Source: an uncultured cyanobacterium (GTDB lineage Bacteria > Cyanobacteriota > Cyanobacteriia > CAKZMO01). Taken from it: 64,000 bases of DNA. The first letter of the stretch is position 1, and each line of letters opens with the position of its first letter. The stretch is from contig CAVRCJ010000001.1 of NCBI GenBank assembly GCA_963719515.1, positions 301,079 through 365,078 on the forward strand, given 5' to 3'. Position numbers and translations under genes: made by a program. The notes beneath the pieces were generated by a model. That model was not told the DNA's origin. It ran no database searches and saw nothing but the letters and a program-made list of their open reading frames with translations. Of this stretch, positions 18,523 through 63,827 are shown piece after piece.

Positions 18523-20805
18523 CTAACGCTCTACGACTTCAATAACTGTCGAGAAAACAGCAATCGCATCCGTGCTGATAGGCGTTTGGTCTTCAGCCAT
18601 TGGCACCAAATCGAGACTTGCAGCGCTGCGGGAAACATCGCCCACATCGCCGAGTAAGCTATCCAAAATATCCAGCTCCTCCCCACGTAGCCCAACTGCC
18701 CCTCGCTTCTGGCCGCCCCGCTCAGCGATCGCCTTCAGCCCCCGTAAGGCGCGATTGAGCGGCTGACGGCTGACCAAGGTAAGCAATTCAACAAAGCCGC
18801 TGCCGCTCAATCGCAGCTCAACCTCATCCTCTTGGCGCGGAACGACTAGCTCCTCGCCTGGGGCGATTAGGGCCGCTTCTGCCGGTGCGTCCCAATTGGC
18901 AGGATGAAGAACGACAATGTCGCCGCTGCCAGCAATGGCGATCGCGCTCAGATAAACGTCGGTGTCCTCATCATTGCGTACGCGAATTTTGACGTTCTCC
19001 CCCGCCTGAAAGGCCTGGGCCGCGATCGCAGCCTGGAAGCCCCGCCCTGCGGCCTGTGCCCCCCGACTGGCAATGGGAATCGCAGACCCCCGCCCGCCCT
19101 CTGCAAACAGCTCTCCGCTAATGTTGAGGTTCGAGGCCGTGGATGCCATCTCCTGCAAAACCTTGGCGACCAATAGTGACTTCAAACGGTCCCCAAGTCG
19201 GCTGATGGCGGCAGTGATAGATTCCCCAACAGGCCCTTCAGACTCAGACACGTACTCAGAAAAGTCGGGGGCAAATAGCGCTAGCGTCCCTAAGGGCGGT
19301 TGCTCGACGGCTCCAGCCTCATCCATCAGCTGACGAATGTCTTCAGTAGTGCGGGCTAGATTAAACGCTACGTCGGCCTGGGTGGTTACCGGTTCAGCCG
19401 TGACGCGACGCTGAAGCGCTGAGCGGATAGCGGTCTCAGCCTCTGCACTCTCTTCGCTAAGGGACTCATGCAGGCCAATGCGCAGGGTGGGGTCGGGAAT
19501 CGCCAACACCTGCTCCCGCAGCAGCATGCCTTCCGTGACAGTGAAGGACTCTCCCTCGACAAGGCCAGCCGTCCCGAGCAGACCGTTTCGTCTCGAAAGC
19601 CGGAGGCTGCCCAGCGGCGCACCATCTGAACCCAGCGCGGTATAGATGGCGTCTGGAGCCGCCGCCTCTAGGTTTTGATACGCCGTGCCACCGAACCAAA
19701 CTTCGATTTCAGGGCCGGAAGCAGTGGGTGTTGTTGTTCTAACGACGGCATCGGCAAAGGATCGAGAGGGCGCTAGAAAAAACAGGTTCGCCTGACTGTA
19801 GTTGCTGCCGGGGGCGTACTCAAAAATAGGAATCTGGGCGCTACGCTTTTGTGAGGTTGCTGCCGCTTTGGTGCTGCGGACCAGGTTGGTTCGAATGGTA
19901 TCAGCAGGTTCAGCGTTAGGCGACTGCCAAAGGTAGCTGGTGAGCAGGTAGGTGAAAATTCCCGATACTTTGCCCGACTCGTAGGGAAGCTCTAGGGCCA
20001 CCTGGTCGCAGCTTGCTGAGCCGATGGCAACTCCTTTGGAGATGCCGAGCGATCGCCGCCGCTGAAACTCGTCTGGCTCCATTCCCAGGTCTTTCAGCCA
20101 GCGCTGCTGATTCTCAAGCTCGGCCTCGCTGGCCACTAGGGGTACGCCGCTGCGCGACAGCCGCGACTGCACCGCTCGCGCCTGGGCCGTGCCCCGGGTG
20201 CCTGCCCCGGAGAAGCAGCTGTCGAGCACCAGGGTGACGTTATCTGTAGGGATGCGCTCAGTGAGCAAAAAGAGCGATCGCCCCATGATATCGGGCACTA
20301 CAATGCGATCGCCGGTTTGTCCCTCGGGGGTAATGTCTTGAGGCACTAGGGTACCGTTGAGTCCATCACCGCTGCTAGCCCCGCAGGCTTCAACGGTAAT
20401 AGGGTCCGGATCTTCTACCTTAGACCCATGGCCAGAGTAGTGCACCACCACCACGTCGCCTGGCCGAGCCTGAGCGATGAGGTGCTCCTCGAATGCCTGC
20501 AGAATATTGGCGCGAGTCGGCTCTAAGGCTTCACCGTCGGCGACCTTGAGCACGTCGCTGGGGTTGAAGCCGTAGCGATGGACGAGCAGCTGGTACTGCA
20601 TCTCAATATCCGTCAGGCAGCCTGAAAGAGTTGGGACGCTAGAGTCAGGGTAGTTGTTGATGCCGATAAGCAGAGCGAGCTTACGCGGCGTGGACTGGGC
20701 CACAGCGCGGTTGAACCGGCTGGCCTGCTGCAAAAAGCCTGCTTGGCTAAGGCCGATGGCTCCGAGGGCGGAACCGGTAAATTGGAGGAAGTGGCGACGC
20801 TTCAT
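18523..20805 (-). CDS. Caspase-family (C14 ortho/metacaspase) protease with Tat signal and C-terminal DUF4384-like domain
   Basis: MKRRHFLQ Tat signal; KLALLIGINNY; catalytic HYSGHGS and VLDSCFSG intact. Confidence 0.9.
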   Translation of the reverse strand: MKRRHFLQFTGSALGAIGLSQAGFLQQASRFNRAVAQSTPRKLALLIGINNYPDSSVPTLSGCLTDIEMQYQLLVHRYGFNPSDVLKVADGEALEPTRANILQAFEEHLIAQARPGDVVVVHYSGHGSKVEDPDPITVEACGASSGDGLNGTLVPQDITPEGQTGDRIVVPDIMGRSLFLLTERIPTDNVTLVLDSCFSGAGTRGTAQARAVQSRLSRSGVPLVASEAELENQQRWLKDLGMEPDEFQRRRSLGISKGVAIGSASCDQVALELPYESGKVSGIFTYLLTSYLWQSPNAEPADTIRTNLVRSTKAAATSQKRSAQIPIFEYAPGSNYSQANLFFLAPSRSFADAVVRTTTPTASGPEIEVWFGGTAYQNLEAAAPDAIYTALGSDGAPLGSLRLSRRNGLLGTAGLVEGESFTVTEGMLLREQVLAIPDPTLRIGLHESLSEESAEAETAIRSALQRRVTAEPVTTQADVAFNLARTTEDIRQLMDEAGAVEQPPLGTLALFAPDFSEYVSESEGPVGESITAAISRLGDRLKSLLVAKVLQEMASTASNLNISGELFAEGGRGSAIPIASRGAQAAGRGFQAAIAAQAFQAGENVKIRVRNDEDTDVYLSAIAIAGSGDIVVLHPANWDAPAEAALIAPGEELVVPRQEDEVELRLSGSGFVELLTLVSRQPLNRALRGLKAIAERGGQKRGAVGLRGEELDILDSLLGDVGDVSRSAASLDLVPMAEDQTPISTDAIAVFSTVIEVVER

Positions 20806-20838
20806 AGGATAAATCGTTGAAGTAGGGCTGATTACGGC

Positions 20839-21741
20839 TTATTGGGCAAGAATGTCTTGGAGCTTGGCTGAGAGACGCGAGAGATCCACGGCGTAGTTGA
20901 CAACTCCGGCATTGGCCTCTCCTGCAGTAAACTCCGCTGAATTCAAGGCAACGATCGCCGGTTCGCCTTCTACAAAGCCAAGAATTGGTCCCCCCGAAGA
21001 GCCGCTAAAGGTATCGCAGTTGTGGCGCAAAAACTCGTCTTCGGCGCTGCCCAAGATGCTGCATCCGTCGTGGACGCTGGCTGTCATGCCGGGATTATCC
21101 GCTGGAAAGTCACCGGAGTAACCTACAAGGATGTACTGCTCAGGGTTGTCAAGTAAGACCGACAGCGGCAGCACCTTCCAGGCTACGGTGCCGTAGCGCT
21201 CTCCTAAGGGCTGGTCTAGCTTGATGAAGGCCCAATCGTCGGGGTGGGGTGGCTGGGGGCGATCGCGAAAGTCTGTACCCGGCAATACTTCAACAGCGTT
21301 TGCGATGTCATCCTGCGACAGGATTTCGCCATTGATGACGTTGGGCGCAAACTTAATGTCGCTGTAGAACTCGTGGGTTTCTGGGTCGACAACGCAGTGA
21401 GCGTTGGTCAGCACGATGTCAGTCTCAACCAGGGTGCCGCTGCAGTGACCGCTGCCGTCTGCGGTCTGAAAGTCGACCCGCCCAATAGCGGACCAAGGGT
21501 GACTGCGGCTAGTCATCACCACGCGATCGTCCCGCTGACCAATGACGCCTCGGCTCCCGCCTTCAGTAGGGCTGCGGGCCTGCCCGAGTCCTTCTGGAAC
21601 GAACGTCGTGGGGTCGGGGTCAAGGTTGAGTGAGCTGTCTAGGCTGGGCTGGGCCTGCACGGCGGCGAGACCGGCAAGGGCGGCTCCGGTGAAACCGGCG
21701 ATCGCCAACAATACGTTGGTGGGTAGGCGATGATGAGTCAT
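20839..21741 (-). CDS. Secreted trypsin-like (V8/S1B) serine protease
   Basis: Signal peptide ending VQA; triad LTNAHC / DWAFIKL / GSSGGP; VIGxxDDR mature N-terminus motif; ATG 21741 preferred. Confidence 0.9.
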   Translation of the reverse strand: MTHHRLPTNVLLAIAGFTGAALAGLAAVQAQPSLDSSLNLDPDPTTFVPEGLGQARSPTEGGSRGVIGQRDDRVVMTSRSHPWSAIGRVDFQTADGSGHCSGTLVETDIVLTNAHCVVDPETHEFYSDIKFAPNVINGEILSQDDIANAVEVLPGTDFRDRPQPPHPDDWAFIKLDQPLGERYGTVAWKVLPLSVLLDNPEQYILVGYSGDFPADNPGMTASVHDGCSILGSAEDEFLRHNCDTFSGSSGGPILGFVEGEPAIVALNSAEFTAGEANAGVVNYAVDLSRLSAKLQDILAQ

Positions 21742-22071
21742 GGTGGTGTTGAACAGGGGCAAAGAACGGTATGCGTAAAAATGGCTCAGTTGACGTTGCG
21801 AATCAAGGTGAACGCGGCCCAAAGACGCGGGTTGGGTGCTGCTCTATGGTGGTGAGCATGGTCTGCCGTAAGGCTTGGGCTTTGTCCACAGGGTTGTCGG
21901 GGTCTTGTCACAGGCAGTAGAACTGCGGTTGCCTACGGAACTTCGAGCTTTCAGCCGCTTGAACTGTCACAAGCAACCGCGCCAACGCAATAGATCTCAA
22001 CTAATTTTCCTTAGAAGAGGATACCGCAGCCACCCGACCCCTGGCGTCAGTGTTACAGAATTGTGAACAGC

Positions 22072-22929
22072 TCAAATCCGCGCCTGCTGCCGCTGCCGAA
22101 TTGCATCGATATTCTCCTGAGCCTCCGCCAAATTCGGGTTCAGCGTCAGGGTTCGCTCAAACGCCGCGATCGCCTCCTCATTTCGCTCCAGCGCCATCAG
22201 CACCACGCCCTTGTAATACCAGCCGCTCACATTGCTAGCGTTGAGCTGCAGCACCCGCTCAAACGATAGTAGCGCCGTCTCCAGCTGCCCCAACTGCCCC
22301 GCCATTCTGCCCCGGTTTAGCCAAGCCCGCTCGAAGCTGGGGTTTAGCGTCACGGCTTTGTCGTAGGCCGCGAAGGCGTCCTCATAGCGCTCTAGCCGGG
22401 TGAGCGTAATCCCCTGGTGGAACCACGCGTCGGCGTTGTCGGGATTGAGGGCGATCGCCTCCGCGTAGGCCCCTAGGGCCTCTTGGGGGCGACCCGCATC
22501 GTCGAGGGAAATGCCCAGCCAAATCCAGGCGTATTGGTGGCTGCTGTCGAGGGTGGTTGCCTGTTTGAGGGACGCGATCGCTTCCTCGTAGCGCTCTAAG
22601 TGATACAGCGCGTAGCCTTTGCCGACGTGGGCTGGGGCGTGGGCTGCATTGAGGGCAATCGCTTCTTCAAAGGCGGCGATCGCGTCGGTATAGCGGCCTG
22701 CATCAATTGCGGCAATGCCCTGGTCCATCCAAGTTTGGAGGGTATCGGCGGTCTTCTGGGAAATGACTATGGGTGAGGCAAACTGCTGAGGGGTGGTGGT
22801 CGTTGGCACAGCTGCTAAGGAGCTAGGCCGATCCTGAAGCCCCATCGCCACGCTTTTAGGCGATGCGCCCAGCGTCAAGCTGGCCGTAGTGGATAGGAGT
22901 AATCCGATTCCGAGCTGAGTAATACGCAT
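22072..22929 (-). CDS. Secreted TPR protein (34-aa TPRs)
   Basis: Signal peptide; about 6 repeats like AWFHQGITLTRLERYEDAFAAYDKAVTLNP. Confidence 0.88.
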   Translation of the reverse strand: MRITQLGIGLLLSTTASLTLGASPKSVAMGLQDRPSSLAAVPTTTTPQQFASPIVISQKTADTLQTWMDQGIAAIDAGRYTDAIAAFEEAIALNAAHAPAHVGKGYALYHLERYEEAIASLKQATTLDSSHQYAWIWLGISLDDAGRPQEALGAYAEAIALNPDNADAWFHQGITLTRLERYEDAFAAYDKAVTLNPSFERAWLNRGRMAGQLGQLETALLSFERVLQLNASNVSGWYYKGVVLMALERNEEAIAAFERTLTLNPNLAEAQENIDAIRQRQQARI

Positions 22930-23013
22930 TGTTGTTGTCCTCGGTTAAGTCAATAGAAAATGCTGTGCTCTGCTGAAACGTACGTCTCGCTGTGAGAGAC
23001 CTATGGGATTTTT

Positions 23014-23458: not shown

Positions 23459-24940
23459 GAATGGCACTGACATAAGCTGTATCAGGCTGCCAGTTTAGCT
23501 TTGAGGACAGAACGCGGTTGCTGCATGCGAGGAAAAGGCTTGGGTCTGCGTTTGACCACTCTCGGTTCGTGGCGATTGGGGCGAAAGGGAACGATGAGCT
23601 GAGCAATCAGACGCAGCAATATCTGATACTGCTGGGAGCGTTGCTGGTGGGTTGCGCCAATAAATGCAGGACGGGCGTGATTCAGCTGCTGTCTTGTGCC
23701 CTGCAGCGACAAGCGCAATGCCGCTGCTGTTGAGTGCTCCGAGGCTTGCCACATCAAGGTGCGCAGCAGATTGTAGGCGAGCAGGTGCATCCATAGGTCC
23801 TTTTTGACTATCTGTGGGGTCTTGGCTGCAATCATCTCCATGCCTAGCGTGGTTTTGAGGTGCTTGAGGTTGACCTCAGTGGCCTGCCAGCGCTGGTGAT
23901 AGAGGTCAATGAGCTTGGCCTTTGGATAGCGTTTGGGATCGCTTAAGGTGGTCACCACAATGATCTCAGTTGGCCGAAATCCGCGCTGAGTAATCAGTAG
24001 ATGCACTTCCCTCACCTCCAGATACAACGGCAGCGACTCAAACGCTGCGCTGCTCATTGAGGCTGGACAGCGGGCGGGGCGCTGCCAAACGACACGGTGG
24101 TCGCCAATGCCCAGCTTCTTGCCTCGGCGAAAGTCGCAGCGGCGAGCATGATGCTTGCGAAACACCCCATCAGCACCAGCCGCCTGGACAAGCGCTAAGT
24201 CAGCATAGGTGCCATAGGCGGAATCAGCTACCACCACATCCTCTGGAGCCAAACAGGCATACAGTTGCCGCGCCAGTTGCCATTCGCTGGTGCCAAACGG
24301 AGCAATGGCCGCTTCGAGTACCGCCCCACTGTTCAGACAAAACCACACCACCACCCGGGCGATGGGAAACCCACAGCCGGGCTTTTGCGTACTCACCTGC
24401 GGATATTCCGCCTGATTGGCAGCAGTATCGCTCATCTGTACTCCGGTGCCATCAAACGCTTTCACCCGTCTGCCACACCAGTACTGCTCAACTGGTACTT
24501 GCGCGTGTAGGGCACTCGCGCTGCGCTTGAGTAACGATGGGAGAATCGCCCAGGGCAGCCGTTTGCGGGCTTTGCTATACCCTCCAGTATCCGATGACGG
24601 CACCGCCTCACCTGTCATCGCCATCCAGGTGGTCACCCGCTTGACTGCGTTGCTCAGGCTGCTGTCACCATCTATCACTTGCGATATCCACGCCCACACA
24701 ACCACCATCGGCGTGTAAAGCACTTGTCGATAAGTTACTTGGTGTTCCTCTAGCACCTGGGCAATTTGAGATTCGCTGAGCACCTGGGCAAACGGCAGGC
24801 CCAGACTGTTTTGGTATTGCTGCTTGAGAATTTCGGCTCGATTCGGCATAGTAGAGACAGTATTTTGTGGCTTTGATCCCCTGATTGTCCCTAATCATGG
24901 GGCTCGAAGCCTTTTTTTGTCTCTTACGTCAGTGCCATTC
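23459..24940 (-). mobile_element. IS4-family insertion sequence
   Basis: TIR gaatggcactgacataag / cttacgtcagtgccattc; 10-bp TSD tgccatatcc. Confidence 0.92.
23482..24849 (-). CDS. IS4-family DDE transposase
   Basis: AFDGT, VADSAY and YHQRWQATEVNLKHLK (YREK-like) motifs. Confidence 0.92.
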   Translation of the reverse strand: MPNRAEILKQQYQNSLGLPFAQVLSESQIAQVLEEHQVTYRQVLYTPMVVVWAWISQVIDGDSSLSNAVKRVTTWMAMTGEAVPSSDTGGYSKARKRLPWAILPSLLKRSASALHAQVPVEQYWCGRRVKAFDGTGVQMSDTAANQAEYPQVSTQKPGCGFPIARVVVWFCLNSGAVLEAAIAPFGTSEWQLARQLYACLAPEDVVVADSAYGTYADLALVQAAGADGVFRKHHARRCDFRRGKKLGIGDHRVVWQRPARCPASMSSAAFESLPLYLEVREVHLLITQRGFRPTEIIVVTTLSDPKRYPKAKLIDLYHQRWQATEVNLKHLKTTLGMEMIAAKTPQIVKKDLWMHLLAYNLLRTLMWQASEHSTAAALRLSLQGTRQQLNHARPAFIGATHQQRSQQYQILLRLIAQLIVPFRPNRHEPRVVKRRPKPFPRMQQPRSVLKAKLAA

Positions 24941-24950
24941 TGCCATATCC

Positions 24951-25370
24951 CTACTGCCTGCCGTTGGGTTTATCCAACGCTGCAAATTCATACCTTGATT
25001 TATTAACGCCTCTCTTTGGTTTAGGAAGGCTGCACCAATGCACGTCGCCCAATGCTCGCGCTAGGGTGAGTGCCTCTTGGTAGCAGCAGTACGCGGCCTG
25101 AATCTGACCCAAATGCCAGTAGCAGCTCCCCAGCCGCTGAAAGATCTGCCGCTCTGCCTGAAAGTTGCCCAAAACCGTCCACAGCGTCAGCGCCGACTCT
25201 AGGTATGGGGCGGCGTCGGCGTATTGACCTTGGTCATAGAAGGTCATCCCTGTGGTCTGTAGTACTAGGGCGCGGCTCTGCTGCTCGCGAGCGGTAGATG
25301 ATGCTAGACAAATTTTTTCGGTGACGTGGTCGCGAAGCTGGCAAAGCAGGTTGACTAAATTTTTCATCAC
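24951..25370 (-). CDS. Small TPR protein
   Basis: Two 40-aa TPR-like units (LGSCYWHLGQIQAAYCCYQEAL). Confidence 0.6.
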   Translation of the reverse strand: MMKNLVNLLCQLRDHVTEKICLASSTAREQQSRALVLQTTGMTFYDQGQYADAAPYLESALTLWTVLGNFQAERQIFQRLGSCYWHLGQIQAAYCCYQEALTLARALGDVHWCSLPKPKRGVNKSRYEFAALDKPNGRQ

Positions 25371-25553
25371 AGCTCTCCTAAATCTGAAAAGGTTCCTCTC
25401 TCTTGCTGATGCATACTTCTCGGCAAGGCAGACATATGGAAATCGTGTTGGCGCTTGCAGGCGTTTTAGCCTTCAGGCAAAGTTTCTGCTTCCATATCTT
25501 TTGCTAAACGAGAGCTATTTCGTAATGTCCCAAGGCGAACCTATAGGAGAGAT

Positions 25554-26033
25554 ATGATGTGCAATGCTGTGCTGCTTCACGTTTGGACGAGCGCTGCCCT
25601 GCCGCTGCTGGCGGTCCCCCAGGCAATCGCGGTGGATATTGGTCGCTATGTGGAGCATCAGACGAACAAAGCTGCCATTTTTAGCGCCGTTGGCGCTGGC
25701 CTGTGCGAGGTGGGTCATGTGTCTCGCGGCGTGGAGTGCCTGGAGCGATCGCGGGCTATCTACGTTGTTTTGGGCGATGAGCGGGCGGAGCGGCGAGTGC
25801 TGCTGCAGATGGGGGAGACCTATCTGCAGGTGGGGCGCTTCACCCTGGCTATCTGCTGTTTTCAGGAGGCGCTTGCCCTAAGCCAGCGGCTGGGCCGGGT
25901 GGCGGAGGTGGAAGCGTTACGGCTGCTGGCGATAGGCTATGAGCAGGCGGCAATGCCGTTTTCGGCGGCGGATGTGACGCAGCAGGCGGCGCTGCTGGAT
26001 GGCAGCGGCGTGGTGGATGTCCCAGTGCATTAG
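25554..26033 (+). CDS. Small TPR protein
   Basis: MGETYLQVGRFTLAICCFQEALALSQRLG TPR-like units; divergent from the previous gene. Confidence 0.6.
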   Translation: MMCNAVLLHVWTSAALPLLAVPQAIAVDIGRYVEHQTNKAAIFSAVGAGLCEVGHVSRGVECLERSRAIYVVLGDERAERRVLLQMGETYLQVGRFTLAICCFQEALALSQRLGRVAEVEALRLLAIGYEQAAMPFSAADVTQQAALLDGSGVVDVPVH

Positions 26034-26926: not shown

Positions 26927-27343
26927 ATGGCGGCTAAAGATAGGTTCCATCGCATCGTATGTATCGCCTTGGAGAAGGAAGGATGGACGATTACAGATGA
27001 CCCCTTATCTTTTCGGTTTGGAGGCGTAGATGTACACATTGACCTTGCTGCAGAACGATTCATTGCGGCGGAGCGTGGCGGAGAGAAAATTGCTGTTGAA
27101 GTTAAAAGTTTTCTTGGCGCATCAGTTGTTTCAGAGTTTCATACGGCGCTAGGGCAGTTTATGAACTACCGCACCGTATTACGACGTAAAGATCCGGATC
27201 GGGTCCTTTATCTTGCCGTTCCTAAAGCCGCGTATGATGACTTCTTCAAGCGACAGTTTACGCAGTTAGTAATTCAAGATTATCAGCTCAGTATTGCTGT
27301 CTACGATATTGAGAAAGAGGTGATTTTCCAATGGCTTCCATAG
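26927..27343 (+). CDS. xisH: XisH-family protein
   Basis: MAAKDRFH, GWTITDDP, IDLAAE, IAVEVKSF, ALGQFMNYR. Confidence 0.93.
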   Translation: MAAKDRFHRIVCIALEKEGWTITDDPLSFRFGGVDVHIDLAAERFIAAERGGEKIAVEVKSFLGASVVSEFHTALGQFMNYRTVLRRKDPDRVLYLAVPKAAYDDFFKRQFTQLVIQDYQLSIAVYDIEKEVIFQWLP

Positions 27344-27666
27344 AAGATTATCGGATCCATATTAAGCAGCTGCTGACTAAATATGGGAGCTATTCTTATC
27401 GCTACGGCGAAGTCGAATCTCAAACCCTATTCGATACAGACCATGATCATTATCAGTTAGTCCGAGTTGGCTGGGAAAATAAGCAGCGGGTCTACGGCTG
27501 CGTGCTTCACTTAGATATTAAAGACGGCAAGGTTTGGATTCAGTGGAATTCTTCGGATATTGATATTGGTGAGGAGCTGGTGGCGCTCGGTGTGCCTAAG
27601 CAAGATATTGTGATTGGGTTTCAGCCTGAGTATTTACGCCAGTATTCGGAGTATGCGGTGGGGTGA
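27331..27666 (+). CDS. xisI: XisI-family protein
   Basis: FDTDHDHYQL, HLDIKDGKVWIQ, LGVPKQDIVIGF; overlaps xisH. Confidence 0.93.
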   Translation: MASIEDYRIHIKQLLTKYGSYSYRYGEVESQTLFDTDHDHYQLVRVGWENKQRVYGCVLHLDIKDGKVWIQWNSSDIDIGEELVALGVPKQDIVIGFQPEYLRQYSEYAVG

Positions 27667-38090: not shown

Positions 38091-38277
38091 TATCAGTCCT
38101 CTAGGTCGTTGAGCGGCAGGGCACGACTCCGCCACTAGACTACAGAATTCTTCACTAATGGGAAATAGCTCTGAGCATTTTGAACCTATGGAAGTTTTGA
38201 GGTGCTGCCTGAGGTTCTGAATTCTGAATGGGTTGGGACGCAGTTTGATGCGCCCATACTACTTGTGGATTGTGGAA

Positions 38278-45720: not shown

Positions 45721-45801
45721 GGATGAGGGGCGATCGCTTTCCCATACCTTCTCTTGGCCGAGAGGTATACACTGCTATGTGTCTCGGTCGGAGCAATTCT
45801 C

Positions 45802-55967: not shown

Positions 55968-56129
55968 GGCGCTGTGTTCCTCACACGTTTGAAGTCTGAA
56001 AATAGATGACGGTATTCGTCGGGCGATCGCTTACGGTGGTGATGGGCTGGTTCCGTAGGGGCGATCGCCTTGTGTCATCACGTACCTCTAGCAGCGCAAG
56101 GGGTATGGATTTTCTTTTGCGAAAGGGCG

Positions 56130-56462
56130 AGGTGATGCGCGGGTGGAGTACCCGCTTACTGTGAGCAACTGGTTGAAGGGCAGCTTCAGCTACTACTTTG
56201 AAGCCAGCAATTTTCTGATTGTTGAGGCTGAGCGGGAGAACCTATACAGCGGGTTTACCCAGCTTGGTGCGGACTGCTGGCTTTAGATCAGTGGATTGAG
56301 AGCGATGTGCCGATGCTTTATGGGGCGGTTAGCGTAAGGCAGATTTGGCAGTTTGACTTGCTGTACTGGGGGGAGAAACACTTAATCCTTCATCGAGTTC
56401 CACAGGAACTAGAGCCGATGATCCGAATGTTGGTTGGTGTTATTTCAGGTGTGTCGAGGTAA
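56130..56462 (+). pseudogene. Decayed fragment of a cyanobacterial nuclease-like hypothetical gene
   Basis: VEYPLTVS...LIVEA...GFTQL, then shifted LALDQWIE...LYGAV, IWQF and RVPQELEPMIRMLV, broken by indels. Confidence 0.55.
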
Positions 56463-56912
56463 GAGGGCTGATGAGATGGCGAGGATAGATGATTGGCCAG
56501 CAGCATCGATTAAGTCTTGGAGTTACTGCTAGGCTTTGTTAACTGAAATTGTAATTTTCTCTGTCGCAGAAATAGATGACTTCCTGTAAGTAGATACTAA
56601 TCAATTAGGCTCAATTGGCAGTCAAGCGCGTAAAAAATGCTTGAGCGTAGTCAAGGCCATAGGTCTCTTTTATAAAGAAATTGTTGCAAATTAGCTATGC
56701 TGTTCCCTCTGTACAGTTTGATTAGAAGTAAGCGGATAGGCTTGAGAAATTGTAGTTAGATCGTAAAATGCAAACTATATCAGCACGTTTCCTTAACTAG
56801 GCTCTCAGAACCGTCTTTACAAAATCTAACTTGCGTAGGTTAATTTGCACTGCAGGTTAACTTGTACTAATCTGCTTATTTAGTCTTAGTTACTCTCACC
56901 GATCTTCAAATC

Positions 56913-59693
56913 ATGCGCTATTATCTAAAATTTCTATTGCCGGTATGTATTGCTGCTTTACCTATTACAGCGGCTGTTTCGTCTCAATCTTTGACCATCG
57001 CTAACTTGATCGTATTGAAGACTCCTCTAGTTGTAGCTCAAGCTCGATTACGTACTGAACTAGAGAGGGCAGACGAATTTCATAATCGAGGCATACAACA
57101 GTTCAATGACAGAAACTTCCGTGAGGCGATAGAATCACTACAATCTGCATTGGAGTTATATCAAAAACTTGGAGAGCGGCAATTAGAAGGACGTACACTA
57201 AATGCAATAGGTTCAGCCCTTCGTGCGGTAGGAGATTATCAAGCTGGAATCGACTATCATCAGCAGGCTCTCATCGTTGCTCAAGATACTAATAGCCCTA
57301 GACAAGAAGCCTCAGCTTTATATAATTTAGGTAGCGCTTATCGCCAAGTAGGTATTTTTCAGCAAGCTGTAGATTTATACAGAAAAGTAATAGAAATTGC
57401 TATTGAAATTGATGATTCAGAGCTAGAAAGGAAAGCCATGAACGATCTGAATCTTGCTATTAGTAATGTAGATCAATCTCAACAGCAAAATGACAGTATT
57501 GACTACTTTTCACAGCAGCTAGAAGCTGCCCGCGATGCTGGCGACCGTATAAGAATTACCCGCGCTCTGGGCGATTTAGCTAACGCGTATAGCGCCTTTG
57601 AATTGTATCCACAAGCTTTTCCTCTTTATGAGGAGCAGCTAGAGCTTGCTCGCGAAATCAATGAGCGTGCAATGGAGGCTAGTGCATTACGTGGTTTAGG
57701 TGAGGCTTACTATAATTTGGGAAAATATCGACAAGCTGTCTCTTTATACGAGCAACAGCTAGCTATTACTCGTGAGATTAGCGATCCCATTTTCGAGATG
57801 CAAGCTTTAACCGCGCTAGCATATTCGCACAACGCACTAAGACAATTTAAAGAAGCTATTGATTATTATGAGCAGCAGCTTGTAATTATCCAAGAAATAG
57901 ATTTTCCCGCAGGAAAAGGAATTATCTTGAGTAACATAGGACTTCTATTTTTACAAGATGGCCAATCTGAGCTTGCAACCATCTTTTTAAAAGAGTCTGT
58001 TAATGTTTGGGAAGAAGTTCGCCAGAGAATCGATGACGAAGAACTAATTCAATCTTATACTAATACTATCTCGGACACCTATCGCAATCTCGCTAGTTTA
58101 CTTCTCGAACAAGACCGTTTGCTTGAAGCGGAGCAGGTCTTAGATCTACTTAAAATTCAAGAAATCAAACAGTATACCCGAGGGCAAGTCCTTGCCCCCA
58201 CCAGTCGTCTCGTCTTCCTCAGTCCTGCTGAACAAGACATTTATCGTAAATATGAAAGCATCATTGGCTTTGCTAAAGAAGTTGCTGCCTGTCGACAAGC
58301 TTCCGACTGTTTTGGAAGCGATCGCATGCAAATCCTACAGGCCGACCGCCGCGCCCTCACCGCTGAATTTGACCAAGCGGTCCAGGAATTTGCCGCTGAG
58401 ATTCAGCGACGTATTGGAGGAGGAGAGCCCCTTATTGCCATTAATACCCTCACCGGTGCTGGTCAAGACATTGTCAACGCCCAGCCAGATACTGTTCTTA
58501 TTTATCCTGTTGTGCTTGACGACAGCCTCTGGCTGATGTGGGTCACAGAAGCCGGGGTGCCCAACGCTATTAAAGTCAACGACATCGGCAAAGCTGAGAT
58601 TGATAAAGCTGTGCTGAAATTTCGCCTACTCATGCGCAAGTGCGAAGATAACAGCCTCTATTGCCAATCTGAAACTGGCATTCAAGCGATTCAGACGGTG
58701 TCTCAGCAGCTCTATACTTGGTTGATGCCCGACCTACTGGAAACTGAGCTGCGCGAGAATGGCATCCAAAACCTGGTGTTTTCCCTAGACCAGTCCATTC
58801 GCTACATCCCCATCGCTGCCTTGTTTGATGGCGATCGCTACCTAGCCGAAAGTTATACTATCTCCACTGTCAACAGCGCTAGCCTCACTAACCGCGACCG
58901 CCCCCTGCCCGATCGCCCCAACGAAACCTCCGTTCTCGCCTTGGGACTATCCGACCCCGTCCCCGCCAACCCCGACATAGGTATCCCTAGCTTCAGGGCA
59001 TTAGACAATGTCCCCGCCGAAATTAACGCAATCGTCAAGCAAAACGGAGCAGACGAGGGCGTCTACCAAGGTACTGAGCAGCTCAATGCCGAGTTTGACG
59101 AATCCGCTATCCTCCAGGCACCGGGCCATCAGATTCTGCATATTGCTACCCATGGCCTATTTGACCCTACTAGCCTCGTCTCCTCATTTCTAGTTCTAGG
59201 GACTCAAGAACCCTGGCGCATCTCTGATATCAACCTCGATCGCCAGCTCTTTTCAGATATCAGTCTTGTTGTCCTCTCTGCTTGTGAAACTGGCTTAGCA
59301 CAAAATGACTGGGCAGCAAATCCGGGAGAGAACGTAGAATTATCTGACGGGCGAGAGGTTTCTAGCATCGCCCAAGCCTTCATCACTGCGGGCGCAAACA
59401 CTGTCATTGCCTCTCTGTGGCAAGTAAGCGACGCAGCTACCAGCGAAGTCATGCAGTCCTTCTACGGCAGCCTAGCCCAAAACACCGCCGACACCCCCGT
59501 CACCATCGCTCAAGCCATGCAGACTGCCCAGCTTCAGATGCTTTATGGCAGTACTGACGCCGACTTTGGGCCGAACCGAAGCACCGAGCAGGACGCGACT
59601 ATCGACGTGCAGACCACTGCTAGCAGCGCATCATCCCGCTATGCCCATCCCTACTACTGGTCACCCTTCGTCATCATCGGCAACGGTCTTTAA
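56913..59693 (+). CDS. Secreted TPR-CHAT protease (CHAT-E)
   Basis: Signal-like N-terminus; 40-aa TPRs; HIATHG and LSACETG dyad; HPYYWSPFVIIGNGL. Confidence 0.92.
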   Translation: MRYYLKFLLPVCIAALPITAAVSSQSLTIANLIVLKTPLVVAQARLRTELERADEFHNRGIQQFNDRNFREAIESLQSALELYQKLGERQLEGRTLNAIGSALRAVGDYQAGIDYHQQALIVAQDTNSPRQEASALYNLGSAYRQVGIFQQAVDLYRKVIEIAIEIDDSELERKAMNDLNLAISNVDQSQQQNDSIDYFSQQLEAARDAGDRIRITRALGDLANAYSAFELYPQAFPLYEEQLELAREINERAMEASALRGLGEAYYNLGKYRQAVSLYEQQLAITREISDPIFEMQALTALAYSHNALRQFKEAIDYYEQQLVIIQEIDFPAGKGIILSNIGLLFLQDGQSELATIFLKESVNVWEEVRQRIDDEELIQSYTNTISDTYRNLASLLLEQDRLLEAEQVLDLLKIQEIKQYTRGQVLAPTSRLVFLSPAEQDIYRKYESIIGFAKEVAACRQASDCFGSDRMQILQADRRALTAEFDQAVQEFAAEIQRRIGGGEPLIAINTLTGAGQDIVNAQPDTVLIYPVVLDDSLWLMWVTEAGVPNAIKVNDIGKAEIDKAVLKFRLLMRKCEDNSLYCQSETGIQAIQTVSQQLYTWLMPDLLETELRENGIQNLVFSLDQSIRYIPIAALFDGDRYLAESYTISTVNSASLTNRDRPLPDRPNETSVLALGLSDPVPANPDIGIPSFRALDNVPAEINAIVKQNGADEGVYQGTEQLNAEFDESAILQAPGHQILHIATHGLFDPTSLVSSFLVLGTQEPWRISDINLDRQLFSDISLVVLSACETGLAQNDWAANPGENVELSDGREVSSIAQAFITAGANTVIASLWQVSDAATSEVMQSFYGSLAQNTADTPVTIAQAMQTAQLQMLYGSTDADFGPNRSTEQDATIDVQTTASSASSRYAHPYYWSPFVIIGNGL

Positions 59694-59709: not shown

Positions 59710-62661
59710 CTACTCCGCCGCCCCAAATAGAGTAAACGCCGCCCACCGCGCCGGGTCATCCGGATAGCGATCGCGGGTGGCCAACATCGCCTGCTGAAGG
59801 GCGATCGCCCGATTCGGCTGCTGCTGGAGCTGACGATAGAACTCTTCCATCAGCTCCGCCGTTGGCCCATCGGGAATGGCCCACAGCGTCACCACCAAGC
59901 TTTCTACCCCCGCTGTCAAAAACGAGCGGGATAAACCAATGACGCCATCTCCCGTAATACGACCCTGCCCTGTGTCGCAGGCGCTCAGTACCACTAGCCG
60001 AGCGCTCATAGACAAGTCAGTAATTTCGGCGGCGGTAAGATAGCCGTCGTCGTCATCTGTTGGCGCTAATGCCAAAGCGCCTGGAATGCCAGTGTCCAGA
60101 TCGTCGAGCAGGCCATGGGTGGCTAGATGTACAATCGATGCCGTCTGCATTTGCGACACCACCGCCTTCTCCGTCGCCGCAGTGTCTATCAGAGGTGTAG
60201 CGCTGAGCAGCGGCGACACTTGTTCTGCTTCTCGTCTGGCCCCCGGGAGCTGATTCCAAGGGACGATGCTGCCTGGCCGATTAGGCATTTTAGGATCGCC
60301 AACAACTAGGGCAGCATCGGTACCGACGCGCAGGGGCGATCGCTGCGGCGAGACGTTGAGCAGGCCGATGGCGGGGGCAAATAGCAGCGGGTGCTTTTCG
60401 ATTAGCGCAGTGTTATTTTCGTCAGGTAGGGCGGCGAAGGGGACTAAAAATAGGGCATCGTGGGGAATGATGACGACCGGGGTGTTGTGGTTCGCGCCGT
60501 TTTCGCCATGCAAAACATCAGAGATAGGCTCAATCAAGAGCTGGTGTAAGGGATAGAGCACCTCTTTGCTCGGCAGCGGATTTCTTCCGATGACCTCGAT
60601 ACCGGCGCTGCGCAGCAGCACCCCTGGTATACCCAAAGCTCTGCGGCTTTGAATCACCCAATCGGCCAGTGGCTTATCTATCGGACTTTGGCGAAAGTGG
60701 ATTTGTCCCGTCGGTTCGATTACCCAGATGTAAAGCTCGTCTTCCACCAGCGAGTACTCCACCAGGATGGCGTCCTGTGCCTGGGCGATCGCCTTAATCT
60801 TCTCGATGCTGGGGGGCTGCACCTGCTGATCTGGAAGCGGTTCACCCCGCAGCGATAGCCTGTGGGCAAGCAGTTCCGCAAAGGCTCGCGATCGCCCTTG
60901 TTCGGAGACTTCTAGGGCTTGGTCGCTGTTGCCCACAGCAACTAGAGCCTGCTGCAATAGGCGGTAGGTGTGAGACTGGGTCTCGATGATCGAGATTTTG
61001 TCTGCGTCGGTTAGCCCCGGTCGCTGCTGCTCCCAGGCAAGCACTGCATCTCGCAGGACAATCGCCGCATCCTCTGGCTTATTTTGCAGCAACAGTTCTC
61101 CCTTGGCGCTGAGGGTTTCGGCTTCACCGCTGACGTAGGTGTTGTCGGTACTGTCGCCACCATCCTCAATATTGTGCCATAGGTATAGAGCCTGATCGTA
61201 CTGCGTTAGAGCTTCGCTGACTTCATCTTGTCGGACAGCGAGCTGACCTAAGCCGTAGTGACTGCGGGCCATGGCGGTTGGGTCATTTGCGGCTTGGGAA
61301 ATTTCTAGCGCTTTTGTGAGGTAGAGCCGTGCTTTGTCTAGGTTGCCTAGCTCTAAGTAGGCCTCCCCGACGCGGCTGAGGGCGATCGCCTCCCCGGCAT
61401 CATCGCTGTTCTTTCGGTAGTCAGCTAGACTGAGTTTAGCAAACCGCAGAGCCTGGGTGAGATTGTCGGAGCGGCTGTAGGCCAGCGCTAGCGCCCTGAA
61501 AATTAGTCCTTCTTGACCCTGTCCTTCGCGGTCAGAACTTCGTCGATCAGTGCCCTGGGGGATAGGCTGGTATTGCTCAAGAGCTCGCTTCAGTAAGGCA
61601 ATCGCCCGCTCAGTTTGTCCTAGGCGAATGTAAGTTTCGCCCAAGTAAGCTAAGGAGTCCACGTCCCCCTGCGGATCGCCGATGGCTTGTCGAACGGCCT
61701 GACTCTGCTGATAGTAGTCCAGGGCGTTGGCATATTCTCCCCGCTCGGCGTAGAGGTTACCAATTTGGTCTAGGGCGTCGCTCTCCCGCAGGCGGTTACC
61801 CGTGGTGCGGTACACCTGTAGCGCCGCTTCAAAAGTGGTTTGTGCGCCGTCCAGGTCACCCCCTTCGGATTGCTGCTGGCCTGTTTGGTACAGTTCGGCG
61901 GCATCATCGCTAAAGGCGCAGATAGTTGCAGGATAGACAGGACAACCTTTAATTCTGAGAGGGAGGTTTCTTAGTTCGAACTCAATAAGCTGCTGAAGCG
62001 GCGATAGACTGCTGATGTCGCGAATTGCATTTCCACTAAGTCTGAGACTTTTGAGCTCTACCAATTGGGCTAGCGGTTCTACTAACTCTATGCGGTTGCT
62101 AATCAAGTCAAGGTTAGTTAGTGTAGTAAGAGAGCTTAAGGGTGACAAGTCACTAATCCAATTGTTTTTGATGTAGAGTTCGGTTAAGTAAAGGCGAGCT
62201 ATAGGTTTTATATTTTCAATACGGTTCTCGTCGACAGAGAGAATCTCTAACCGGGTTAGACTTGTCAGCGGACTGAGGTTCCGAATCTGATTCTTACTTA
62301 GATCGAGAGTTTGCAAATTAGTAAGAGCTGACAGTGGGCCAATGTCTTCAACTTCGTTATTTCCAAGAGATAATACTCGTAGCTGAGTCAAACTGGTTAG
62401 AGGAGCTAGAGATTTGATTTGACGATTGTCAAGCCGTAAGCGCTCCAGACCGTGAAGATATTTATCTGCTACGTTACAGTCATTAGTTTCCGCCGTCTCC
62501 AGCAATACTTCAATAGTGTGACGCTCAGCGGCGGGGAGATCCTCCCGTTGAGCGCACAAGCTAGCAAAGCGGAGAGGCTGCGCGACGGCTAAAGTTGCGG
62601 GTAACAAAGCCGAGACGGAGGGTAAGGTAAATACCAAGGGAGCTAATAAATTTATAATCAT
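59710..62661 (-). CDS. Secreted LRR-TPR-CHAT protease (CHAT-F)
   Basis: 22-aa internalin-type LRRs, TPRs, HLATHG and LSACDTG dyad, WAAFTLFG. Confidence 0.92.
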   Translation of the reverse strand: MIINLLAPLVFTLPSVSALLPATLAVAQPLRFASLCAQREDLPAAERHTIEVLLETAETNDCNVADKYLHGLERLRLDNRQIKSLAPLTSLTQLRVLSLGNNEVEDIGPLSALTNLQTLDLSKNQIRNLSPLTSLTRLEILSVDENRIENIKPIARLYLTELYIKNNWISDLSPLSSLTTLTNLDLISNRIELVEPLAQLVELKSLRLSGNAIRDISSLSPLQQLIEFELRNLPLRIKGCPVYPATICAFSDDAAELYQTGQQQSEGGDLDGAQTTFEAALQVYRTTGNRLRESDALDQIGNLYAERGEYANALDYYQQSQAVRQAIGDPQGDVDSLAYLGETYIRLGQTERAIALLKRALEQYQPIPQGTDRRSSDREGQGQEGLIFRALALAYSRSDNLTQALRFAKLSLADYRKNSDDAGEAIALSRVGEAYLELGNLDKARLYLTKALEISQAANDPTAMARSHYGLGQLAVRQDEVSEALTQYDQALYLWHNIEDGGDSTDNTYVSGEAETLSAKGELLLQNKPEDAAIVLRDAVLAWEQQRPGLTDADKISIIETQSHTYRLLQQALVAVGNSDQALEVSEQGRSRAFAELLAHRLSLRGEPLPDQQVQPPSIEKIKAIAQAQDAILVEYSLVEDELYIWVIEPTGQIHFRQSPIDKPLADWVIQSRRALGIPGVLLRSAGIEVIGRNPLPSKEVLYPLHQLLIEPISDVLHGENGANHNTPVVIIPHDALFLVPFAALPDENNTALIEKHPLLFAPAIGLLNVSPQRSPLRVGTDAALVVGDPKMPNRPGSIVPWNQLPGARREAEQVSPLLSATPLIDTAATEKAVVSQMQTASIVHLATHGLLDDLDTGIPGALALAPTDDDDGYLTAAEITDLSMSARLVVLSACDTGQGRITGDGVIGLSRSFLTAGVESLVVTLWAIPDGPTAELMEEFYRQLQQQPNRAIALQQAMLATRDRYPDDPARWAAFTLFGAAE

Positions 62662-62678
62662 ATCAATTGCGCTATTGG

Positions 62679-63827
62679 TTATGGTATCAATGTTTCTCGC
62701 TCACATGGGCCTAACTCGTCATTCGGCAAAGTGGCTTGACAAAAATTAGTATCTTGTAGGCTAGCCCCATCTAGCTGCGCGTTGAGCAGGCTAGCCCGCT
62801 CCAAATCTGCCCCTGCTAAATTAGCGTTGCGTAAATTAGCGTTGTCCAAAATGGCACCGGCTAAATCGGCTCCTTGCAAATTACTACTAGATAAGTCAGC
62901 ACCTTTGAGTTGAACTCCAATCAGGTCAGCATTGCTGAAGTCTATGTTACTAAGGTTGCAGTATAAGCACTCATTTCCAGCTCTAAGCCGTCGTAAGTGA
63001 GCCGCCTGCTCAATTTTAAGGCGATCGCTTTCAGCAATAGAATTATTTTGCAAACTAAGTCTCGTCACCTGTTCTAAAAGTAATAGAGGGGAAGCATCTA
63101 CAACTTGATTTGAGATAAGCCTTATTGTCGCCAGCGCTGTTAAGTTTCTTAGCGGCTCTAGGTCTTCAACTTGATTGTTGTTGAGATGGAGATTTTCTAA
63201 ATAAGTCAGCTCTTGTAAAGGATATATATCGTATATTTGATTTGTAGACAAATTGAGCTCATTTAGTGCAATAAGTCTACTCAATGGCGCTAAATCTCGA
63301 ATGGCGTTGTCCTCAAGCTCCAGAACTTCTAAATTAGTCAAGGATACTAGAGGACGTAGATCTTCAACTTGATTTCTTGATAGCCTAAGGGTCCGTAAAC
63401 TCACAAGTTGAGCAAGCGGGCTCAAGTCGCTTACCGAGTTACCGCTAAAAGTCAAATCGTATAGGTTAGTGAGCTGTGATAGTGGAGTTAAATCGGTAAT
63501 CTGATTGTTGTCTAAGTACAGTTTGTTAAGCTGGGTAAAATCGGCTAGAACACCAATGTCTTGAAGACGAGAATTTCCGAGCTGAAGGCTATCTGCTTCG
63601 AGTAAGATGCGATTGGCTTCTTCGCAGTCATCAACATCTGCAAGCGTCAAAAGTACCTCTATAGTCTGCTGCCTATTCTCATTTATGCGATCGCGCTGTT
63701 CACACTGCGACAGAAACCGCTTCGGAGTGGTAGACAAAGGCCGTAGCGTAGGCGTCGATTTGGGCATCAAGCCGATCAATAGGGCGATCGCAGGTCCCCA
63801 CGTCAACATGTTATGAAAAATATACAC
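62679..63827 (-). CDS. LRR plus pentapeptide-repeat protein
   Basis: 22-aa LRRs (LDNNQITDLTPLSQLTNL) followed by ADL/ANL pentapeptides. Confidence 0.9.
   Translation of the reverse strand: MYIFHNMLTWGPAIALLIGLMPKSTPTLRPLSTTPKRFLSQCEQRDRINENRQQTIEVLLTLADVDDCEEANRILLEADSLQLGNSRLQDIGVLADFTQLNKLYLDNNQITDLTPLSQLTNLYDLTFSGNSVSDLSPLAQLVSLRTLRLSRNQVEDLRPLVSLTNLEVLELEDNAIRDLAPLSRLIALNELNLSTNQIYDIYPLQELTYLENLHLNNNQVEDLEPLRNLTALATIRLISNQVVDASPLLLLEQVTRLSLQNNSIAESDRLKIEQAAHLRRLRAGNECLYCNLSNIDFSNADLIGVQLKGADLSSSNLQGADLAGAILDNANLRNANLAGADLERASLLNAQLDGASLQDTNFCQATLPNDELGPCERETLIP

Follow-up and report, generated by a model that had tools for sequence, protein, structure and literature searches.

To our knowledge, the protease-gated sigma factors known so far belong to cytoplasmic, nucleotide-triggered defense systems (Craspase, CalpL, and SAVED-CHAT with PCaspase). 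In the type III-E CRISPR system Craspase, the tetratricopeptide repeat (TPR)-CHAT protease Csx29 is encoded in the CRISPR locus, which is associated with gRAMP/Cas7-11, together with Csx30, Csx31 and CASP-sigma, and acts in the cytoplasm under RNA guidance. In the classical regulated proteolysis of extracytoplasmic function (ECF) sigma and anti-sigma factors, the released sigma factor typically autoregulates its own operon. The Toll/Spaetzle pathway is an extracellular serine protease cascade with serial zymogen activation and a cleaved ligand. The current study deals with a four-gene operon for a sigma-like protein, a DUF1822 protein, a CHAT-CHASE2 receptor and a DUF928-like protein, and with the island of protease genes around it, in a stretch of 64,000 nucleotides (the window) from contig CAVRCJ010000001.1 of an uncultured cyanobacterium.

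Kaur, Iyer, Burroughs and Aravind (eLife 2021, PMC8195603), in the passages concerned with these families, describe proteins with a constant alpha+beta N-terminal domain (EACC2), a caspase domain and a variable C-terminus, e.g. CHASE2. Their genes usually lie beside those for an ECF sigma factor and DUF1822, and the same passages propose, on computational grounds only, that stimulus-induced activation of the peptidase is relayed to the sigma factor. An earlier note on the DNA studied here, made from the sequence alone, had presented its assembled pathway as having no known experimental description; the core idea (caspase-CHASE2, ECF sigma factor, DUF1822 and peptidase-gated signaling) is already found in the passages of PMC8195603 just cited. 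DUF928 as a periplasmic companion of CHASE2 and a regulon of exported enzymes are additions to that outline. In Haliangium ochraceum, according to the sections of a bioRxiv article devoted to it (10.1101/2023.06.23.546230), a cytoplasmic cascade triggered by cyclic tri-adenylate (cA3) runs from SAVED-CHAT through PCaspase to PCc-sigma and results in abortive infection. The CalpL-CalpT-CalpS system is summarized in the same sections: a signal-activated protease cuts the anti-sigma partner and frees an ECF-type sigma factor.

The best overall explanation of the results, to which we give about as much credit as doubt, is that the four-gene operon encodes a transmembrane, protease-gated switch and that the exported enzymes are its regulon. 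CHASE2 would face the periplasm together with the exported DUF928-like protein, and the cytoplasmic CHAT domain with its His-Cys dyad would be the output of the receptor. We infer that DUF1822 binds the sigma-like factor and holds it until it is cut by CHAT in response to a ligand, and that the freed factor reads a bipartite promoter before its own operon and before the operons of the exported enzymes. These enzymes would mainly be the regulon, i.e. an inducible extracellular proteolytic and oxidative response, which would be the biological role of the switch, and they may feed back on the receptor via DUF928.

Conservation of the core operon

The window has a G+C content (GC) of 57% and is part of contig C1 of a cyanobacterial genome of 5.28 Mb in 21 contigs; the closest relative fetched for the receptor gene comes from a metagenome-assembled genome (MAG) of Elainellaceae (68% identity). 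A Pfam scan of the 26 larger open reading frames (ORFs) between 18.5 and 63.8 kb of the window revealed a run on the minus strand that consists of an unassigned ORF of 469 amino acids (aa), DUF1822, CHAT with CHASE2 (41.2 and 45.9 bits in ORF 33466-35394) and a weak match to DUF928. These genes, and the motif that precedes them, are as follows.

38166-38192, minus strand: promoter-like motif TCCATA-N14-AGAGCTA before the sigma operon, the best match in the genome to the weight matrix described below
36726-38090, minus strand: divergent sigma-70/ECF-like protein, likely start at Met16 of the 469-aa ORF
35387-36706, minus strand: DUF1822 protein (PF08852, 122.6 bits), candidate partner or anti-sigma factor of the sigma-like protein
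33008-35394, minus strand: receptor with a conserved N-terminal domain, CHAT (His246, Cys290), a transmembrane segment (TM), CHASE2 and C-terminal TMs; frame broken at 33565-33573
32259-33014, minus strand: DUF928-like exported-type protein with two PPVP..GGSRG motifs, last gene of the core operon; export heuristic (see below) 2.11

When one genome per species was scanned, the receptor proved to have 144 relatives; 80 loci were retained, and the ORFs in these were labelled by BLAST with the window proteins. Upstream of the receptor gene, both a sigma-like gene and DUF1822 are present in 34 of the 58 loci whose upstream flank reaches 3.5 kb (36 if DUF1822 alone is counted). Downstream, where 72 loci offer 1 kb or more, 58 have a DUF928-like gene. 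Another CHAT gene was present in 18 of the 33 loci that extend 8 kb or more on each side, a subtilase in six and a caspase in two. The co-occurrence of these families in other genomes, which the earlier note had proposed as a check, is supported by these counts (other CHAT genes being found within 8-10 kb). A true orthologue of the peroxidase (81% identity) was seen in only one of the 80 loci, L004. In the core operon, starts and stops often overlap, and in many loci of the Nostocales a TPR-CHAT gene of 1000-1800 aa stands between DUF1822 and the receptor gene.

The receptor is laid out as CHAT, TM, CHASE2 and further TMs, its later part and TM segments being encoded in a -1 frame ORF. All 74 homologues keep His246 and Cys290, and residues 1-95 have a mean column conservation of 0.68 (vs. 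0.70 for the CHAT domain).

The labels that the earlier note had given to the operon held for DUF1822 and CHAT-CHASE2; the score of the DUF928-like protein is below the cut-off, and the 469-aa ORF had no Pfam or NCBIfam match, so that sigma regions 2 and 4 are not recognized in it by family models. A paralogous, better-preserved set of genes is located on another contig of the same genome (C3, G000:C3:131000-150000). It comprises a TpsB transporter, a sigma factor (Pfam Sigma70_r4, 36.9 bits, plus a Sigma70_ECF match), DUF1822 (257 bits), an intact CHAT-CHASE2 protein (834 aa), a canonical DUF928 protein (135 bits) and a TPS-domain exoprotein of 1403 aa with a P-domain. With hhalign, the sigma-like family scored 93.8% against a single C3-type paralogue and 97.2% (E 4e-11, 252 columns) against four, over a stretch that runs from a region-2-like segment through a helix-turn-helix. 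The C3-type profile matches the sigma-4 domains of SigF and of ECF SigL in the Protein Data Bank (PDB). The 469-aa ORF is best called sigma-like, its identity as a sigma factor being suggested by transitive remote homology.

In an independent class-wide sample of 60 other genomes, the sigma-like family (called at E<=1e-70) was present in 20, and DUF1822 in all 20 of these. In this sample, 27 of the 29 full-length sigma-like genes are immediately followed by DUF1822. At one locus from a MAG of 2.8x coverage (L067:1125-3811), a single open frame covers DUF1822 and the C-terminal part of the sigma-like gene, as a result of either gene fusion or error. The literature searched yielded no experimental work on either DUF1822 or DUF928.

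The DUF928-like protein of the window scored 21.8-22.4 bits with PF06051 (cut-off 26), and 16 of 24 members of its subfamily match that model at E<=0.01 (best 3.2e-8). An hhalign comparison of the family with one canonical DUF928 protein gave 4%, which as a comparison with a single sequence is uninformative. We regard the window protein as a member of a divergent DUF928 subfamily, best called DUF928-like. Canonical DUF928 was detected in 34 of 121 genomes sampled from the phylum, usually in several copies. One DUF928 locus was taken from each of 30 genomes, and Pfam placed CHASE2 in ten upstream and 12 downstream flanking ORFs, joined to adenylate/guanylate cyclase, GGDEF or CHAT outputs; a local model confirmed CHASE2 in at least 17 of the 30 loci. 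The presence of CHASE2 beside DUF928 with such varied outputs shows DUF928 to be a general companion of CHASE2 receptors.

Some related loci differ in gene content. In those of Lyngbya, Limnoraphis and Capilliphycus (L014, L017, L018, L025, L027, L028), a small RTX-repeat protein (ORF of ~700 nucleotides) is encoded right after the DUF928-like gene. Weak BLAST matches to a "peroxidase" beside DUF928 in Lyngbya and Limnoraphis proved to be RTX repeats only. The loci of these three genera showed neither a sigma-like nor a DUF1822 gene; upstream of the receptor gene they have a ~355-aa ORF with the motif before it. One contig that is filed under an Actinomycetota MAG (L033) has a DUF1822/CHAT-CHASE2 locus typical of cyanobacteria (50% identity), and this filing is probably a binning error.

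A promoter-like motif shared with neighboring enzyme genes

The Pfam scan detected CHAT (PF12770) in seven ORFs of the window. Besides the receptor, these are 30036-32201 (plus strand, 196 bits), 38278-40005 (minus, 225 bits), 39833-43354 (minus, 210 bits), 45754-51522 (plus, 214 bits), 56913-59693 (plus, 190 bits) and 59710-62661 (minus, 222 bits, with leucine-rich repeats, LRR). The genome has 22 CHAT matches in total, and the clustering is beyond chance because eight of these fall within 41 kb on this contig, the eighth lying just beyond the end of the window. Pfam and profile homology thus confirmed the inventory given in the earlier note, i.e. seven CHAT genes, a caspase, a trypsin-like protease, a subtilase and a heme peroxidase around the sigma-like/DUF1822/CHAT-CHASE2/DUF928-like operon.

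The new element of this analysis is a bipartite promoter-like motif that the sigma operon shares with many of these genes. The hexamer TGCATA was found in 26 of 35 regions upstream of sigma-like genes, and cYcAGArnTA, for which no selection had been made, follows it at a constant distance. A position weight matrix (PWM) was made from 22 distinct sites, all from other genomes. Its best match in the whole genome studied here (24.9 bits) lies 30 nucleotides (nt) upstream of the sigma-like ORF of the window, and the next matches in the window precede the TPR-CHAT gene 39833-43354, a TPR gene fragment, the TPR-trypsin-caspase operon and the peroxidase. The -35 part in this genome and in its two closest relatives reads T(T/C)C(C/T)ATA, the motif having the form TGCATA-N14-AGArnTA in most cyanobacteria and TCCATA-N14-AGmnsTA in this clade.

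The pattern YYCATA-N14-AGMNSTA was derived from the five window sites found with the PWM. It is matched exactly eight times in the window, where 0.07 matches would be expected, and 100 shuffles never gave as many as eight. The sites outside the derivation (25491, 27747 and 45741) belong to the second TPR fragment, a TPR-CHAT gene split by an insertion sequence (IS) and a TPR-CHAT gene of 1906 aa; a further site with one mismatch lies 38 nt before the subtilase. Throughout the genome 16 matches were found against ~6 expected by composition, eight of them in the island, and one of the others precedes a signal-bearing TPR-CHAT gene on C3. In the island the motif precedes nine operons, i.e. three of TPR-CHAT genes, the TPR-trypsin-caspase operon, the subtilase, the peroxidase, two TPR fragments and the sigma operon. 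All nine sites are on the correct strand, 31-115 nt before the start codon, and their spacers are not conserved. An origin of the motif from a miniature inverted-repeat transposable element or other repeat was rejected, because both spacers and flanks differ among the sites. The motif-led genes outside the core operon are listed below.

18523-20805, minus strand: C14 caspase-like peptidase (Peptidase_C14) with C-terminal DUF4384 (64.8 bits; YSGHG and DSCFSG motifs) and twin-arginine N-terminus RRHFLQF, last gene of the TPR-trypsin-caspase operon
20839-21741, minus strand: trypsin-like serine protease with signal-like N-terminus (Trypsin_2, 43.2 bits, in ORF 20839-21822; AHC and GSSGG motifs; heuristic 2.12)
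22072-22929, minus strand: exported-type TPR protein (Pfam; heuristic 1.92), first gene of the TPR-trypsin-caspase operon
22981-23007, minus strand: promoter-like motif CCCATA-N14-AGACGTA, 51 nt before the start of the TPR gene
24951-25370, minus strand: TPR gene fragment, 139 aa; motif at 25414-25440 (minus strand), 43 nt upstream
25554-26033, plus strand: TPR gene fragment, 159 aa, signal-like; motif at 25491-25517 (plus strand), 36 nt upstream
27747-32201, plus strand: TPR-CHAT gene split by an IS; motif at 27747-27773, signal and TPR part at 27831-28658, TPR-CHAT remainder to 32201
39833-43354, minus strand: exported-type TPR-CHAT, 1173 aa; motif at 43386-43412 (minus strand), 31 nt upstream
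43579-45720, plus strand: subtilase (Peptidase_S8) with signal-like N-terminus; one-mismatch motif GCCATA-N14-AGAGCTA at 43514-43540
45741-51522, plus strand: exported-type TPR-CHAT, likely 1906 aa; motif at 45741-45767, overlapping a TTG start at 45754
53097-55967, minus strand: animal-type heme peroxidase (An_peroxidase) with RTX repeats; motif at 56083-56109, 115 nt upstream

The likely start of the 1906-aa protein is the ATG at 45802, since the motif overlaps the TTG. The CHAT domains of the four motif-bearing TPR-CHAT paralogues are 52-63% identical to one another, and those of two motif-free CHAT genes are 28-36% identical to these. The motif was found neither in the paralogous C3 locus nor in the 10 kb past the window. 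A scan for sigma-70-type promoters between 31.8 and 43.7 kb gave one site (3.9 expected), and a literature search on the motif yielded nothing relevant.

In the 80 related loci, 94 PWM matches of at least 16 bits were found, whereas five local shuffles gave 0-11; some 22-24 of the 94 had served to train the matrix. The matches stand before sigma-like genes (29), subtilases (six), other CHAT genes (five), DUF1822 (three), a caspase (one) and the peroxidase of L004 (one); 44 more precede unlabelled ORFs, many with signal-like N-termini, and five have no ORF. In L004 it is the clade variant that precedes the peroxidase orthologue, as well as a CHAT gene. In the complete genome G171, the ~20 kb around the sigma operon contain seven sites when the pattern is loosened to TGCATA-N14-AGNNNTA, each of them before an operon, including two sets of the sigma/DUF1822/CHAT-CHASE2 type and a TPR gene.

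Across five whole genomes, the exact pattern TGCATA-N14-AGARNTA occurred 36 times and its reversed control twice. Thirty of these sites were fetched: six precede sigma-like genes, one a subtilase, one a caspase of the twin-arginine translocation (Tat) type, one a signal-bearing trypsin-like gene on another contig, and four signal-bearing TPR genes (two large and two small). Two stand before HisKA_3 kinases, and single sites before a bacterial dynamin-like gene, a P-type ATPase and a weakly matching cNMP-binding protein; ten have no family match or ORF. Among the genomes studied, the motif was seen before a cytoplasmic HisKA_3 histidine kinase in three (L100, L109 and L082:12553) and before a dynamin-like protein in L088, and these two proteins are possible further members of the regulon.

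In the class-wide sample, the 20 genomes with the sigma family have 65 matches to the pattern against five for the reversed control, and the 38 genomes without it have 13 against 12; two genomes with weak sigma-like matches were set aside. The excess of the motif is thus tied to the presence of the sigma family. Since related genomes are not independent, this link is a strong association and not a formal test. The putative sigma-4 recognition helix reads QVT[R/K]LLK in 28 of 28 loci of the TGCATA type, and has A, Y or S at the [R/K] position in three loci with TCCATA or TCTATA.

Export was judged from the most hydrophobic uncharged stretch of ten residues within the first ~45 residues of 27 window proteins. 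A score of at least 1.9 was obtained for 11 of them (four TPR-CHATs, the LRR-TPR-CHAT, the short CHAT, the DUF928-like and trypsin-like proteins, two TPR proteins and the LRR-pentapeptide protein), and several of the signal-like N-termini finish in A-x-A-Q. The subtilase scored 1.89; the caspase scored 1.34, but has a twin-arginine start (MKRRHFLQF). The other 14 proteins scored at most 1.39, including a kinase, the transposases, XisH/XisI, the peroxidase, and the sigma-like, DUF1822 and CHAT-CHASE2 proteins, whose N-termini have no hydrophobic signal-like segment by this heuristic. The earlier statement that nearly all of the enzymes carry export signals can thus be kept for most of them, with a Tat-type caspase, and has to be given up for the peroxidase, which has RTX repeats only and no N-terminal signal. 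In the related loci, where the best of the first four start codons was scored (a lenient rule), signal-like N-termini were found in 44 of 48 other CHATs, 60 of 64 DUF928-like proteins and all six subtilases, compared with one of 76 receptors, six of 37 sigma-like and eight of 40 DUF1822 proteins as controls. All four caspase orthologues begin with RRQFLQ.

Because they share the promoter-like motif of the sigma operon, the exported protease operons are best seen as co-regulated outputs or feedback elements. This bears on the direction of signaling given in the earlier note, in which exported TPR/LRR-CHAT proteins act as sensors, activate the zymogens of the trypsin-like protease, the subtilase and the caspase, and process DUF928 into a ligand for CHASE2, whereupon the membrane CHAT cuts DUF1822 and frees the sigma factor. 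In favor of that cascade, the heuristic supports the exported state of the CHATs and proteases, the DUF928-like gene directly follows the receptor gene in most loci (canonical DUF928 likewise lying beside CHASE2), and TPR-CHAT genes occur inside or beside the core operon in many Nostocales. The supposed sensors, however, carry the promoter motif of the sigma operon itself, and would be co-induced or downstream, with at most a feedback loop. Moreover, the counts of neighboring CHAT, subtilase and caspase genes (18, six and two of 33) indicate that these are not obligatory parts. We therefore consider the upstream-sensor cascade unlikely.

The only hint of a processing step of the kind that this cascade invokes, and an indirect one, is the motif PP-x5-7-GGSRG-x-C, conserved near the mature N-terminus of the DUF928-like family. 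Exact GG[ST]RG is present in 17 of 63 members of this family, and only 20 occurrences were found among 3711 ORFs. The DUF928-like protein of the window has two copies of GGSRG and the trypsin-like protease one, and the other real-looking ORFs of the genome are almost free of it. In the protease it stands as GGSR/GVIGQ (the slash marking the presumed cut) after the signal and a stretch of ~30 residues, at the presumed propeptide junction, where a zymogen of the chymotrypsin fold would be cut. A common Arg-specific processing step of the two proteins is therefore conceivable; the trypsin-like protease is, however, a single case, and GGSRG was not seen in its partial homologue in L003. If such a step is added to the switch proposed here, a full loop can be drawn: a CRISPR-independent transmembrane switch would control a TGCATA-N14-AGAnnTA regulon, and the enzymes of this regulon would process DUF928 at GGSR/G and amplify the signal. 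We regard the loop in this complete form as doubtful. If true, it would amount to a bacterial extracellular protease and oxidant response resembling innate immunity, with feedback of the Toll/Spaetzle type and a halogenating peroxidase in its arsenal.

Erosion of the island in this genome

The island also contains mobile elements and genes that are motif-free or damaged. The features not yet listed are given here.

23482-24849, minus strand: IS transposase (DDE_Tnp_1, Pfam); element with four copies in the genome by copy count
28654-29969: IS inside the TPR-CHAT gene, transposase at 28773-29927, 13-nt perfect terminal inverted repeats, six copies in the genome
38278-39726, minus strand: short exported-type CHAT protein, with Asn replacing the catalytic His (HLASNS)
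51620-52927, plus strand: IS transposase, two copies in the genome
56913-59693, plus strand: TPR-CHAT with signal-like N-terminus, motif-free; CHAT 34-36% identical to the motif-bearing paralogues, 5' part low in GC
59710-62661, minus strand: LRR-TPR-CHAT, signal-like, motif-free
62679-63827, minus strand: LRR-pentapeptide protein, signal-like, motif-free

The copies within each of the three IS families are 97-100% identical. The element in the TPR-CHAT gene 27831-32201 is 1.3 kb long and was inserted in a TPR repeat, with inverted repeats at 28654-28666 and 29957-29969. The region holds three DDE transposases, several ORFs with TPR only and a XisH/XisI pair (189 and 152 bits; 26927-27666, plus strand), located between the TPR fragments and the IS-split TPR-CHAT gene. 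No Cas family was detected in the 26 island ORFs by the Pfam scan, CRISPR arrays not having been specifically searched. A tRNA-Val gene (GAC; 18333-18406, plus strand) lies 117 nt from the end of the caspase gene and marks the left edge of the island; the island extends from there to the contig end, and the tRNA gene is a possible integration site. GC drops to 43% in two stretches (56001-58000 and 62001-64000), in which the 5' half of TPR-CHAT 56913 and the LRR-pentapeptide gene are located. Both genes are motif-free and may be of foreign origin. Past the window (G000:C1:365079-374941), genes for a TPR-M48 peptidase, a Uma2 endonuclease, the eighth TPR-CHAT (1063 aa) and an NYN-domain protein follow before the contig ends.

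These features could be taken to mean that there is no pathway at all, and that an IS-ridden island of paralogous genes for exported repeat proteins and proteases lies by chance beside a signaling operon, the motif being an ordinary stress or envelope promoter that another regulator reads. The three IS families, the gene fragments, the split gene and the frameshift fit such a view, as do the tRNA-Val gene at the island edge, a gene order that differs from that of the closest relative L004, and the receptor loci (24 of 58) with no sigma-like or DUF1822 gene nearby. Against this view, the excess of the motif over its control is confined to sigma-bearing genomes, the motif stands before the sigma gene itself in 29-31 loci and is not found at the C3 paralogues, and it recurs before the same gene families at unlinked places in other genomes. 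We consider a chance assembly of this kind improbable.

The state of the switch in this particular genome is a separate matter. The receptor gene is split over two frames: the alignment of its relatives (805-890 aa) covers 33466-35394 and continues in the -1 frame at 33008-33469. The break coincides with a run of nine C on the coding strand (33565-33573), where relatives read PP-Q, and either seven or ten C would be in frame. A metagenome contig from a population of 95-99% identity (one contig, depth 2.6) has one more G at this run; four sediment metagenome runs of one study contain 10-27% of the sampled words. The frameshift is either an assembly error or a real slipped-strand variant. Programmed frameshifting at the run was set aside, since simple indel polymorphism explains the data. 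With its receptor gene out of frame, the switch may be inactive or defective here.

It is accordingly possible, though not the view we favor, that the module is real in this lineage and dead in this genome, the frameshift being genuine and the island in decay. Consistent with decay, the short CHAT reads HLASNS where other CHATs read HLATHA/G; among 23 related CHAT ORFs above 140 bits, 22 keep the His, and the pattern was not found in the last, a fragment. The other six CHAT domains of the window keep both His and Cys. The IS-split TPR-CHAT gene and the two TPR fragments point the same way, and the Pfam scores of DUF1822 (122 vs. 257 bits) and the DUF928-like protein (22 vs. 135 bits) are far below those of the C3 paralogues. 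These low scores are, however, common to the whole window-type family, which keeps its invariant catalytic residues. An indel in a homopolymer is a common assembly error, the metagenome contig restores the frame, and all nine promoter motifs are intact.

Several further points weigh against the proposed transmembrane switch and its regulon. This copy may be non-functional, with a frameshifted receptor, one CHAT gene split by an IS and one CHAT protein without its His. None of 31 members of the sigma-like family matches a Pfam sigma domain (E<=0.01), and a PDB profile search with the family found no sigma factor, so that its identity is transitive and linked only through the C3-type paralogues. 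DUF1822 matches PF08852 only and no recognized anti-sigma domain in Pfam; it had no sequence relative in the PDB by profile search, and a weak search for a fused or longer form found none. The 24 loci with sufficient upstream flank and no sigma-like and DUF1822 genes beside the receptor indicate that the receptor can work with other partners. The window pattern was built partly on five window sites, the new finds being three sites and that of the subtilase, and no motif was found before TPR-CHAT 56913, the LRR-TPR-CHAT, the LRR-pentapeptide gene or the eighth TPR-CHAT downstream. The covariation of the recognition helix with the -35 part is confined to a single clade and is therefore one evolutionary event, and the motif could be read by another factor that is merely correlated with the operon. 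Finally, export was judged with a home-made heuristic, which was lenient in the related loci.

Comparison with known protease-gated systems

The proposed switch has in common with the Toll/Spaetzle pathway a set of exported-type proteases, a small exported-type protein beside a membrane receptor, and a transcriptional output. In contrast to that pathway, the promoter evidence puts the proteases downstream of the transcription factor. With Craspase it shares the coupling of a TPR-CHAT protease to a sigma factor, which in Craspase is held in a sub-complex. Unlike in that system, the gating CHAT is fused to a periplasmic CHASE2 sensor, and the TPR-CHATs have signal-like N-termini.

In CalpL and in the classical ECF systems the protease is of another clan (Lon, or site-1 and site-2 proteases). 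DUF1822 has no recognized anti-sigma domain, and the sigma-like protein, with ~455 aa, is too divergent for Pfam. In the SAVED-CHAT cascade, CHAT, a C14 caspase and a sigma factor are likewise encoded together, one clan CD protease activates another, and the sigma factor is the target of cleavage, as stated in the relevant sections of the bioRxiv article (10.1101/2023.06.23.546230); here the caspase has a Tat signal and belongs to a separate operon under the sigma-type promoter. The EACC2-caspase system is comparable in the CHAT His-Cys dyad, the CHASE2 and TM sensor and the neighboring DUF1822 gene. In the passages of PMC8195603 that treat it, neither a DUF928 partner nor a promoter or regulon is mentioned, and exported TPR-CHAT, caspase, subtilase and peroxidase genes do not appear there either.

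The module would thus be an envelope-spanning counterpart of the cytoplasmic protease-gated sigma systems. It is widespread in cyanobacteria with large genomes, judging by the presence of the sigma family in 20 of 60 other genomes of the class. It offers specific, testable roles for DUF1822, DUF928 and CHASE2, and a testable output in the form of a promoter class and a regulon of exported clan CD, serine and heme enzymes, by which it may be set beside the systems described so far.

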